A stretch of DNA of 60,351 nt from an uncultured Bacteroidales bacterium (GCA_964652315.1 CAZZBU010000007.1:1-60351); one strand, 5' to 3'. Counted from the stretch's first letter, positions 15,552 through 18,593 are shown. Program-made: numbers and translations. Notes: generated by a model from the sequence alone, not told the origin.

Positions 15552-16280
15552 TTAGTCTACCTTTCTAATGGTACCAGCACTGGACGATTCGCTTTTTATT
15601 ACATTGCCCTCGCCACGGTAACGGATATCACCTGCACTGCTGGCCGATAAAATAAATTCTTCATTAGCAAATACTTCAGCATTGCCGGAACTTGAAACAG
15701 ATACTTTACATTTATTTGTTTCGAGATTAAATGCATTCAGGTCGCCTGCGCTGCTCAAACTGGCATCCATGCTGTTGGCCCTGCCTGATAGTGTGGCATT
15801 ACCTGCGCTTGATATGTCCAAATCAATGTGGTTGGCATTTAACTCAAGGTGAAGATCCCCGGCACTGCTCAGGTCAATTTCAATGTTTTCAACATTAAAC
15901 GGGGTTTCAGCCTTTAAATTGCCGGCACTGTTAATATTTATCTTATCCAGCAAAGGGGTAGAAACATAGATTTCTTTCTTTTTTGCCGAACGTATATTCA
16001 CGTCACTCTCTATAACAAGTGTTCCGTTGAATACATCCGTACGGATGATATCATGAAGATTTTCATCAGCCACCACTTTTAGAGGTTGATTATCGCCCTG
16101 GGTTAAAAACACATCTATTCCATTTTCGACTGAGATACTGTGAAATTTATCAACAGTGCGTTCCATTTCAACCACATTTCCATTTCCGGATATGCCTGAC
16201 CCATCCCAGAATACATCACAGGAGTAAGATAAAAGAATCAGGCTGAATAGTGAGGTAAAAAAGCTGGCTTTTGATTTCAT
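15552..16280 (-). CDS. Head GIN domain (DUF2807) lipoprotein
   Basis: Lipobox SYSC; GNGNV, ADENLH, repeated SSAG-x-L beta-helix units, I.Y.G. Confidence 0.85.
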   Translation of the reverse strand: MKSKASFFTSLFSLILLSYSCDVFWDGSGISGNGNVVEMERTVDKFHSISVENGIDVFLTQGDNQPLKVVADENLHDIIRTDVFNGTLVIESDVNIRSAKKKEIYVSTPLLDKININSAGNLKAETPFNVENIEIDLSSAGDLHLELNANHIDLDISSAGNATLSGRANSMDASLSSAGDLNAFNLETNKCKVSVSSSGNAEVFANEEFILSASSAGDIRYRGEGNVIKSESSSAGTIRKVD

Positions 16281-16399
16281 ACTTTGAGTTAATTGGTTAT
16301 TGTAAAACTATGAATTATTCCTGATATTCAGTGAAAAAAGGATAAAAAAAGTGAATCAGGTGCATCTTTTTCTTAATGCAAGCAGTTTATACATAATTG

Positions 16400-16414
16400 T
16401 GGCACAATTGTTGA
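16400..16414 (+). promoter_or_regulatory. Candidate sigma54 promoter for a small RNA
   Basis: TGGCAC-AATTG-TTGA with exact -24/-12 spacing; predicted +1 near 16426. Confidence 0.55.
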
Positions 16415-16425
16415 AATAATAAAAA

Positions 16426-16516
16426 TACGATTATATAGTTAGTTTTTAGGTTAGTAGTTAGGTTTTAGTTAGTTGAAAAAGATTGCCTTCGTCGCCCGGC
16501 GAAGGCAGTTTTTTTT
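16426..16516 (+). ncRNA. Candidate ~90-nt small RNA with UUAG repeats
   Basis: Promoter-like site, then a 57-nt C-free stretch with six TTAG, then a 13-bp hairpin plus T8. Both flanking genes are on the minus strand. Confidence 0.55.
16481..16516 (+). terminator. Intrinsic terminator on + strand
   Basis: GATTGCCTTCGTC-GCCC-GGCGAAGGCAGTT then T run; the three G-U pairs form only on the + strand. Confidence 0.75.
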
Positions 16517-16562
16517 ATAATTATTGCTTTTCTGGTGAGATTTTTAGAAATATAAACAAGGA

Positions 16563-17285
16563 TTATTGCTGTGTTATACCTGATTTTTCATTCACTTCAA
16601 GTTTAAATCCTGAATTATGAATGTTGGTAATGGATATGGTGTCATCGTCTTTTAAAATTTTTCTCAATTTAGTTATATATACATCCATGCTTCTACCCAT
16701 AAAATAGTCATTCTGTCCCCAAATGGTTTTTAGGGCGATTTCCCTCCGGAGCAGATTATTCTTATTGATGCATAGCAGGTGCAATACCTGGGATTCTTTT
16801 TTCGTCAGCTTCCGCTCGCCTTCGGGCCACGATAAAATCTGATTGGCATAATCAAAGGTATACTTTCCAAGCTTAAATAGCTGGGGTGTAGAAATAATGC
16901 CATCATGGAATTTTAACCGTTTCTGGATGGCACGGATCCTCAATTCAAGTTCTTCAGTTGAAAAAGGTTTATTGATGTAATCATCACCACCAATGCGGTA
17001 ACCTCTGATTCTGTCTTCATCCATTGATTTGGCTGTAATAAAAATAATAGGGATCTCACAATCTTTTGTCCGGATCTCTTCAGCCAGGGTGAAACCATCT
17101 TTTACAGGAAGCATAACATCAAGCAGGCAGATGTCATATTTTTTCTTTTCAAAGGCTGTTAACCCTGCCTGTCCATTTTCTTCAAGATCAACTTCATAGC
17201 CTTTCATTTCCAGAAAATCCTTGATAATGTATCCAAGGTTTTTATCATCTTCAACAACCAATAGTGTCGCTTTTGCTTTCTTCAT
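16563..17285 (-). CDS. OmpR-family response regulator (RprY-like)
   Basis: LVVEDD, LLDVMLP, DYINKPF, winged helix GRSMDVYITKLRK. Confidence 0.9.
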   Translation of the reverse strand: MKKAKATLLVVEDDKNLGYIIKDFLEMKGYEVDLEENGQAGLTAFEKKKYDICLLDVMLPVKDGFTLAEEIRTKDCEIPIIFITAKSMDEDRIRGYRIGGDDYINKPFSTEELELRIRAIQKRLKFHDGIISTPQLFKLGKYTFDYANQILSWPEGERKLTKKESQVLHLLCINKNNLLRREIALKTIWGQNDYFMGRSMDVYITKLRKILKDDDTISITNIHNSGFKLEVNEKSGITQQ

Positions 17286-17300
17286 GCTAAAAATCTATTG

Positions 17301-18593
17301 TTAGGTTTTAGACTGACTGTTTTTGCTTATCTCATGATGCCCCACCGGAAACTGAATGGTAAAGTTGCTCCCTTTGTGGGGTTCGCTGCTTACTTTTATT
17401 TTACCGCCGTGTGCATCAACCATTGTTTTAACATAATAAAGCCCAATACCAAATCCCCGTACATCATGAACATTGCCTGTTGGTACCCGGTAAAACCTGT
17501 CAAAAATCTGATTTATAGTTTTATTTGGGATACCAATACCATTATCTTCTATTTCAATAAACGCATTTTCCTTTGCTGTATCGTAATATGTTTTAATTTT
17601 TATTTCTGGTTTTTCTCCTGAATATTTTGATGCGTTATCCACCAGGTTAATAATAATGTTCGAAATATGTAGTGCATCACCTTCAATAACCGGTTCATTT
17701 TTATCAAAATCATAATGCATAACAACTTCTTTTTCGCATTGTTCAAGGCAGAGATTATGTACTGTGTTCTTGATAAGGTTGTTGAGATGAATTTCTTCAA
17801 CGTTTAGTTTTATTTCTTCCCTTTCAAGCTGGGCGAGTTGCAAAACCCTGTCAACCAGATCTTGCAATCTGTTGTTTTCTTCATGTATAATGGTTGCATA
17901 CTTTTTTAGCCGCTCATTTTTACCTTCCACGCTTTTTAATATCTCGGAGGTTAATGCAATGGTGGAAATTGGTGTTTTGAATTCATGCGACATGTTGTTG
18001 ATAAAATCATTCTTCATGTCAGACAAGCGTTTTTGTTTTAAAAGGTTATGAAGGGTAAATCCGAAAGTAAAAACAATGGTCAATAAAAATATTCCTGAAA
18101 CAATCAGCCATGTCGACATTTCCCACAAAATTTTGTTTGACTGAGTGGGAAAGAATAAGGCTATATGAAAGTATTCTTTATTCCAGAGACACGATAAACA
18201 AGCTTTATGGGCCACTGTGTTTTCGGTCCGTCCGAGGCAATTCCGCGATTCATAAATTACAGAATCATTGGCTGTTTTAACTATCTGATATCCATAGTTG
18301 TTTCCCAGTTTGTGATAATGAATGTATTTGCGCATTAATGTATCAACAAGGTTTGTATCAAGCACCCCGAACAGATGACCGGGGCCGGGGGATGAATCAA
18401 TATCTTGGTATTTTTCTTCGGCATAGATAACCAATTCATCCAAAACATCTTCGAGGGTAAGATTTGCCCGGTGATTAAAATGTTCTGTGCCCACTTTTAT
18501 GGCTTTGATAATCCAAATTGTTTGAGTGAGGATTAATCCGGCTAGAGCAATGGCTGTAAAAATTACAATAAAACGAATTGAACCTTTTTTCAT
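17301..18593 (-). CDS. Membrane sensor histidine kinase (RprX-like)
   Basis: Two TM, H-box NNMSHEFKTP, N-box NLVDNA, G-boxes DNGIG and GFGIGL. Confidence 0.92.
   Translation of the reverse strand: MKKGSIRFIVIFTAIALAGLILTQTIWIIKAIKVGTEHFNHRANLTLEDVLDELVIYAEEKYQDIDSSPGPGHLFGVLDTNLVDTLMRKYIHYHKLGNNYGYQIVKTANDSVIYESRNCLGRTENTVAHKACLSCLWNKEYFHIALFFPTQSNKILWEMSTWLIVSGIFLLTIVFTFGFTLHNLLKQKRLSDMKNDFINNMSHEFKTPISTIALTSEILKSVEGKNERLKKYATIIHEENNRLQDLVDRVLQLAQLEREEIKLNVEEIHLNNLIKNTVHNLCLEQCEKEVVMHYDFDKNEPVIEGDALHISNIIINLVDNASKYSGEKPEIKIKTYYDTAKENAFIEIEDNGIGIPNKTINQIFDRFYRVPTGNVHDVRGFGIGLYYVKTMVDAHGGKIKVSSEPHKGSNFTIQFPVGHHEISKNSQSKT

Follow-up and report, generated by a model that had tools for sequence, protein, structure and literature searches.

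What is encoded in the gap between two minus-strand genes of an uncultured Bacteroidales bacterium, where the plus strand combines a promoter-like motif, a series of TTAG repeats and a terminator, is the question raised by the locus described here. It lies in a 60,351-nt stretch of DNA, referred to below as the window, which is present in seven DNA runs from microbial-mat metagenomes. An earlier note on this DNA had proposed a sigma-54-dependent small RNA (sRNA) that either sponges an RNA-binding protein or pairs with translation-initiation regions. The unit is, with high probability, a real small-RNA gene and belongs to a paralogous UUAG-repeat family with about ten copies in the source genome, which is of the same order as Bacteroides. 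The family appears previously undescribed, as no description was found in the Bacteroidota literature by a search that was narrow, publication elsewhere being possible. From the sequence we infer the transcription of the window unit, its 5' end and sigma factor as well as its pairing and targets.

The unit is flanked by a DUF2807 gene (15552-16280, minus strand) on one side and by the gene of an OmpR-family response regulator (16563..17285, minus strand, assigned by Pfam) on the other, so that its placement between two minus-strand genes holds. The regulator gene is convergent with the unit, and the histidine kinase of this regulator is encoded at 17301-18593. On the plus strand, the sigma-54-type −24/−12 motif TGGCAC-N5-TTGA reported previously was found as TGGCACAATTGTTGA at 16400-16414; its −12 element is non-canonical (GA, not GC), and a one-mismatch sigma-A −7 box, TAATTGTG, overlaps it at 16393-16400. 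The 57-nt stretch lacking any C is likewise present at 16429-16485, and all six TTAG sit within 16439-16472, in a G/U-rich core with UUAG repeats (16436..16473, plus strand) that ortholog alignments delimit as conserved. The unit ends in a GC-rich hairpin (approximately 16484-16508) and a T8 tract at 16509-16516, as had been described. This segment (16484..16516, plus strand) has the GC-rich stem-loop and the U-run on the transcribed strand that define an intrinsic terminator, with a stem of about 10 bp containing a U.G pair and a loop GCCC before the T8. Based on this architecture and the lack of an ORF, the predicted small RNA would span 16426..16516 on the plus strand and measure about 90 nt if transcription starts about 24 nt past the GG, or about 100-110 nt with a sigma-A-type start near 16407-16420. 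No ORF of at least 20 aa was found inside 16426-16482, in line with the non-coding character claimed before, and the only ORFs overlapping the unit are 16351-16419 (22 aa) and 16483-16620 (45 aa), the latter with its start inside the terminator.

When the unit is folded alone, the 3' hairpin dominates (z = −4.85 versus shuffles) and the repeat part pairs weakly. The extended hairpin reaches −24.8 kcal/mol on the plus strand and −12.7 kcal/mol on the minus strand. The claimed preference for the plus strand thereby stood. A simple scan also called a weaker terminator-like site on the minus strand (8 pairs, tail ATCTTTTTCA). The A5 upstream of the terminator permits the extended stem as well as some bidirectional activity, and in view of the weaker minus-strand call the hairpin may also terminate the regulator operon.

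Not every part of this plan is unusual in the source genome. C-free runs of at least 57 nt occur 72 times genome-wide on both strands and are hence not rare. TTAG is the second-rarest among the 12 permutations of its letters (16,692 sites in the genome) and forms 11 clusters with at least four, 7 with at least five and 4 with at least six copies. The permutations ATGT, GTAT, TGTA, GATT and ATTG are 2-3 times commoner than TTAG, yet they form only 0-1 clusters of at least five. The clustering of TTAG is far from random, beyond that of motifs of equal composition.

The assembly of the source organism (4.23 Mb, 294 contigs) was searched by BLAST with the window unit and then scanned for TTAG clusters. 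Seven of the 11 clusters are clean units, in which TTAG repeats lead into a strong GC hairpin and a T-run (contigs C7, C26, C21, C205, C62, C175 and C9), three are variants, and the cluster on C23 lacks a terminator. Among the variants, C42 carries a TTAG segment fused to another G/U-rich unit, C24 is located directly 3' of a SusD gene and has no T-run, and C19 has no T-run either. Since the hairpin sequences differ between copies, the units are not copies of a mobile element. The neighbouring genes of the copies are varied as well; three of ten adjoin two-component genes, namely the window unit, the copy on C62 (kinase) and the copy on C42 (receiver-only regulator).

For comparison, 17 units from six genomes were delimited by coordinates, two of the 17 being near-duplicates. 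The number of TTAG per unit ranges over 2-13, most of them spaced 4-7 nt apart, C makes up 0.6 % of the repeat part, and a T-run follows the hairpin on the TTAG strand in all 17. In 15 of these 17 units, G.U pairs make the hairpin more stable on the TTAG strand than on the opposite one, and the two exceptions differ by just 0.3 and 1.2 kcal/mol. An upstream A-run is found in several of the 17, hence some hairpins, including that of the window unit, may terminate both ways. In a MAFFT alignment of the units the hairpins were out of register, and for this reason RNAalifold on three orthologs missed the terminator.

Further units were seen by eye in five more genomes from other families, and relatives carry more copies. 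BLAST against 37 other-family genomes returned six matches, of which G007 and G028 were judged clear units and G037 doubtful, and those in G006, G011 and G024 were judged not to be units. An order-wide pattern scan was dropped as a measure of distribution: 44 of 401 genomes match, compared to about 50 genomes for the reversed pattern, and together with the many 7-nt tandem repeats this makes the count uninformative on distribution. Simple 7-nt tandem arrays of (TTAGTAA)n and similar type are common in L125, L129, L130 and L138, which belong to other families of the order; their architecture is unrelated to that of the sRNA units and they inflate pattern counts. A metagenome scan with a 20-nt core pattern gave two matches, both in unrelated high-GC DNA. 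On the high-GC metagenome contig L122, a long, perfect-looking palindrome of TTAG-type repeats and their complement is situated between two genes.

The source genome contains additional repeated elements of other types. A second G/U-rich, terminator-ended family was observed at C21:9831-9900 (+), C21:22001-22070 (+), C21:30520-30589 (−) and C50:3818-3900 (+), with a common 3' part of the ...GGGTTTAGTTGATAGTTGGTTGACAGG type before the hairpin, of which the C50 copy retains only the TTGGTTGACAGG end. One copy of this second family and the TTAG-family copy C21:10057 are arranged in tandem, the former about 200 nt upstream. A third G/U-rich type, TTTAGGGTTGTTTTAGTGTGG..CAGG followed by a hairpin and a T-run, occurs at C6:26620-26727 (−) and C42:16080-16160 (−), and on C42 it is fused behind the TTAG-repeat segment. 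In addition, a repeat of at least about 70 nt, beginning with GGCCATTT.TTTTCATAGG, is present in at least eight copies (C21:3480, C21:32130, C36:1793, C48:25417, C14:28409, C13 and C30 among them) and may represent insertion-sequence ends.

The GTDB family of the source organism consists of four genomes, of which G001 and G002 have the unit at the syntenic place, convergent with the orthologous regulator gene as in the window. The regulator proteins are 67 % and 69 % identical to that of the window. An alignment of the intergenic regions from the three genera shows 37 of 38 identical positions in the core (16436-16473), the 38th being a one-T length difference, and the DNA upstream of the core is unalignable among the three. 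The terminator stems have different sequences, and all of them fold (−24.8, −22.0 and −21.2 kcal/mol). Such a contrast between core and flank would be expected if an RNA (or DNA) sequence is under selection. As the other flank differs, with DUF2807 in the window and G001 and transketolase in G002, the two-component system is the conserved partner of the unit. The three genomes are kin and not independent, so this evidence comes from one lineage. Related loci were also sought through the regulator protein; the best matches were only about 50 % identical and therefore gave no syntenic information. Paralogs and orthologs of the same architecture, whose absence the earlier note had named as grounds for giving up the idea, were thus both found, which supports an independent plus-strand unit and disfavours a hairpin that serves only as terminator of the regulator gene.

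No Rfam family reaches its gathering score in the window, and the low-score matches of the unit all rest on the terminator and the G/U tract. The covariance model of FopS (RF04319) scores 19.2 bits at 16438-16518, well below its cut-off of 56 bits; at E≤1 the model had no match in 20 paralog or ortholog loci nor in the whole genome, the B. thetaiotaomicron control being detected. CsrC gave a sole, sub-threshold match (22.7 bits versus a cut-off of 61) to a unit of a relative. FopS itself exceeds its cut-off in 22 of 151 sampled genomes of the order, distributed over many families, and is absent from the source genome and G002. This distribution is wider than the Bacteroidaceae range given in the accessible part of the FopS paper (PMC11697453). 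Examples of FopS elsewhere in the order were seen at L140:198-267 and L141:1501-1570.

Despite the low scores, three copies of the UUAG family (C9, C42 and G074) have a 5' motif in common with two genuine FopS sequences, UUUUUCAU(A/G)G..UUAG..GGUUA, also written UUUUUCAUAG..UUAG..GGUUA. The window unit does not contain the UUUUUCAU motif and shares with genuine FopS the A-rich linker before the stem. The common 5' motif points to either remote shared ancestry or convergence towards similar targets; membership of the unit in FopS does not follow from it, the similarity being too weak for the covariance model. FopS RNAs are regulators of translation in gut Bacteroides. According to the portion of the FopS paper at hand, there are 14 FopS RNAs of 65-70 nt with sigma-A promoters, whose 5' end pairs next to the start codon of susC-type mRNAs, and the RRM protein RbpB binds these RNAs and counteracts them (PMC11697453). 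GibS, a relative of FopS, is described in the accessible sections to have a different promoter (PMC11697453, PMC7366714), named PM2, with near-palindromic −10 and −30 elements (PMC7366714). The UUAG family resembles FopS in being multi-copy (12-15 copies per genome in FopS versus about ten here) and mostly intergenic, with one copy here after a SusD gene, and probably in having mostly sigma-A (TAnnTTTG) promoters. It also has, like FopS and GibS, a G/U-rich 5' part, predicted to be single-stranded, directly before an intrinsic terminator. One member with a non-standard promoter would parallel the contrast between GibS and FopS as reported in those sections. Unlike FopS, the 5' part is an expanded UUAG array, and the predicted RNA is longer, with about 90-110 nt versus about 65-70 nt.

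To assess the proposed pairing with translation-initiation regions, crude ORF calls served as gene starts (1803 ATG starts), so that the positional statistics are blurred. k-mers complementary to the core peak at −20..−11 of ATG starts by 4-5 fold (280 versus a background of about 65 for 7-mers, 104 versus about 20 for 8-mers). A reversed control of the same composition peaks at the same place by 2.3-2.6 fold, hence much of the complementarity is compositional. CTAA peaks at −20..−16 upstream of start codons with 96 per 5-nt bin compared to a background of about 30, and TAACC, AACCT and AAACC are 1.8-2.1 fold over-represented in −40..−1 of ATG starts. This enrichment of CTAA and TAACC is a compositional signature of initiation regions in the source genome. 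Several copies as well as the G001 and G002 orthologs furthermore carry (U)UUCAU, the complement of AUG-AAA, just before the repeats; the window unit itself does not contain UUUCAU. The anti-start motif TTTCATAG was found in six G/U-rich units (four of the TTAG family, C50 and C84), where the ORFs on the opposite strand are just 4-25 aa long, so that no genuine gene start on that strand explains the motif. On C42, by contrast, a seventh copy has a 63-aa ORF opposite.

Searches for a specific, conserved mRNA target of the window unit by duplex energy, exact complementarity or anchored alignment returned none. Duplex energies of 5' regions were no better than those of mid-gene regions or of the reversed query, the longest exact complements in the initiation regions of the 1803 genes were similarly frequent for the core and the reversed control (25 versus 19 with at least 10 nt, 62 versus 67 with at least 9 nt), and a start-codon-anchored alignment of initiation regions gave no outlier. 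The RDD leader singled out before could not be upheld as a target, since its match is a 9-nt complement and 99 such 9-mer positions, overlapping windows counted, lie near the 1803 ATG starts. At 17300-17311 (minus strand), 12 nt are perfectly complementary to the core; this site, 15-26 nt upstream of the regulator ATG and covering the kinase stop codon, was rejected as a target because it is kept in neither G001 nor G002. The best candidates from a search for 14-mer complements with up to one mismatch were not conserved in these two genomes or uninformative. For a gene on C5, the 13-nt complement upstream is not kept in G001 or G002. For a gene on C145, G002 retains the site, yet the entire gene shows 90 % identity in that genome, which makes the retention uninformative.

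Pairing with A/C-rich initiation regions nevertheless represents the best-supported mechanism, and by analogy and composition we consider it nearly an even bet, with the full 38-nt identity of the core, spacers included, counting against it, since this exceeds what a short seed needs. It has to be weighed against two other explanations of the locus. The RNA might instead titrate a single-strand RNA-binding protein through its UUAG units (six here, 2-13 in the family) in the manner of CsrB/RsmZ or CrcZ. UAG-containing RNA belongs to the classic ligands of RRM proteins, CrcZ is a sponge that depends on sigma-54 and is encoded beside its response regulator, and the two RRM_1 genes of the source genome encode stand-alone RRM proteins that are obvious candidates for such a partner. 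The six UUAG of the window unit are located in a weakly paired region, the paralogs have a short repeated unit in common and not one fixed seed, and a specific mRNA target did not emerge, all of which fits a sponge. Orthologs, however, retain the spacers (37 of 38 positions), which a degenerate multivalent platform does not need, and the anti-start-codon motif of some copies points to mRNA pairing. FopS itself speaks on both sides: in the part of the paper available, RbpB binds the single-stranded 5' part of FopS RNAs in B. thetaiotaomicron, yet it antagonises the pairing RNA and is not sequestered by it (PMC11697453). Altogether we rate a sponge as unlikely, yet as the main rival of pairing, the remaining probability falling to a combination of the two or to other mechanisms. 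The other explanation dispenses with a separate RNA: the hairpin would only terminate the regulator operon (bidirectionally), and the TTAG repeats would be a neutral microsatellite-like spacer or DNA repeat. It can draw on the A5 together with the weak minus-strand terminator call, on the regulator gene ending 47 nt from the hairpin and on the 72 C-free runs of such length. It is at odds with a repeat-plus-terminator plan that recurs in unrelated contexts with promoters of its own, with a core kept almost unchanged in three genera amid unalignable DNA, with hairpins that favour the TTAG strand in 15 of 17 units and with hairpin sequences that differ from copy to copy, unlike those of mobile-element copies. 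This leaves it very improbable.

Which promoter would drive the window unit is a separate matter. For sigma-54, TGGCA-N6-TTG is kept in the window, G001 and G002, the bases between and around being unrelated (..CAATTG.., ..TAAAAT.. and ..TGGAGT.. between TGGCA and TTG, respectively), and the source genome encodes rpoN and 10 strong Sigma54_activat (enhancer-binding) proteins. Compared to the GG-N10-GC pattern, the GG and the spacing are present and the GC at −12 is not: the dinucleotide reads GA in the window and G001, GT in G002 and the canonical GC in none. Single TGGCA-N6-TTG motifs are weak evidence alone, because there are 302 in the genome and the N6 spacing shows no excess. Upstream of genes, this motif occurs 16 times in sense versus 5 times in antisense orientation, N6 giving the top sense count among N2-N10. 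The base after TTG in the 16 sense sites is A in 6, T in 5, G in 4 and C in 1, so TTGA is not disqualifying here and the −12 rule may be looser. Non-canonical sigma-54 promoters exist according to the accessible part of a further study (PMC12316311). Two TGGCAT-N5-TTG(C/T) sites at C49:16075 and C49:16232 (minus strand), 157 nt apart with near-identical downstream sequence, resemble two copies of one sigma-54-type promoter with a difference at the −12 C. At L039:1297-1313 in G001, a canonical TGGCAC-N5-TTGCT lies 148 nt upstream of the non-canonical site on the same strand and points at the sRNA.

An ordinary sigma-A promoter could also drive the RNA, with TGGCA as a site for a regulator, such as the neighbouring OmpR-type protein, or as an upstream promoter element. 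Of 15 units of the source genome, 6 have the perfect −7 box TAnnTTTG at 33-51 nt from the core on the upstream side, where by our estimate from base composition about 0.14 would be expected by chance, and five units of relatives have it 22-80 nt upstream. The one-mismatch TAATTGTG of the window unit is at the family-typical position, and in G001 and G002 the supposed −12 TTG is part of a TTTG. None of the other 14 units examined in the source genome has TGGCA-N6-TTG, and the one further examined unit with this motif is in G179 (TGGCAT-N5-TTGA), in another family and a different gene context. The genome scan proposed by the earlier note yielded paralogs of the repeat and terminator plan without the TGGCA motif. 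The −12 element also lacks the C that all five strict intergenic sigma-54-like sites of the source genome (TGGCAT-N5-TTGCT) have, and no enhancer-binding protein is encoded on the contig of the window unit, the adjacent regulator being of OmpR type. Against sigma-A stand the absence of a perfect −7 box within 140 nt of the window unit and its G001 and G002 orthologs (0 of 3), the retention of TGGCA at a fixed 6 nt from TTG despite changed intervening bases, the sense bias of this motif upstream of genes with its frequent TTGA, and the canonical sigma-54 site at the same locus in G001. We regard a sigma-A promoter as a serious possibility that falls somewhat short of an even chance. Transcription by sigma-54 is, on these sequence features, a finely balanced call: conservation of the motif in both syntenic orthologs and the presence of rpoN speak for the earlier claim, and a −12 element that is never GC as well as the sigma-A-type boxes of the paralogs speak against it. 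With TGGCA-N6-TTG conserved in place of a sigma-A −7 box, the window copy probably responds to another signal than most paralogs do, with sigma-54 as a possible route.

Two well-known groups of regulatory RNAs invite comparison. The Qrr RNAs of Vibrio are paralogous, have an identical conserved core and sigma-54 promoters, and one copy is located beside a response regulator gene. The UUAG family likewise consists of paralogous predicted sRNAs with a conserved core and a copy adjacent to a regulator. Qrr, however, needs Hfq and the enhancer-binding LuxO, whereas here the neighbour is of OmpR type, most paralogs appear to have sigma-A promoters and sigma-54 is a candidate only. CsrB/RsmZ and CrcZ present GGA or A-rich motifs in defined loops and bind CsrA/RsmA or Hfq/Crc. 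They share with the window unit the many short single-stranded motifs, and CrcZ is in addition sigma-54-dependent and beside its two-component regulator; unlike them, the body plan here is that of a pairing sRNA.

In the pairing model, a member of the family would consist of a C-free, G/U-rich and largely unpaired 5' part with 2-13 UUAG, followed by a GC-rich intrinsic terminator. The UUAG/GGUUA-rich 5' part would pair with an A/C-rich stretch (CUAA, UAACC) 10-30 nt upstream of start codons, and copies with UUUCAU would also pair with AUG-AAA itself. Initiation of translation would be blocked as a result, perhaps with an RRM protein as modulator, the role that RbpB has for FopS. The window copy appears to stand apart through its promoter and its association with a two-component system. 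The complete picture, a trans-acting FopS-like sRNA of the UUAG family that pairs with initiation regions and has a distinct, possibly sigma-54-dependent promoter, is in our view as apt to be right as wrong. A more far-reaching version, in which expansion of the UUAG unit made an "anti-initiation-region" RNA family in a lineage without FopS and the window member, fired by sigma-54, works as a multivalent RRM decoy or mass masker, seems rather improbable to us. If true, it would amount to a CsrB/CrcZ-style global switch under sigma-54 control in Bacteroidota.

Little is known of post-transcriptional control in Bacteroidota beyond gut Bacteroides, and Shine-Dalgarno pairing is not used in this phylum. 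That a microbial-mat relative without FopS has a second family of the same body plan, built from repeats, suggests that multi-copy "anti-initiation-region" sRNAs are a general device of the order. The family would also provide a natural comparison, with promoters of two classes in front of nearly the same RNA and a two-component system linked to one copy. Should the sigma-54 link hold, no earlier sigma-54-dependent sRNA is known to us in the phylum, nor did a non-exhaustive literature search find one. The finding extends, and does not overturn, the picture drawn from FopS.
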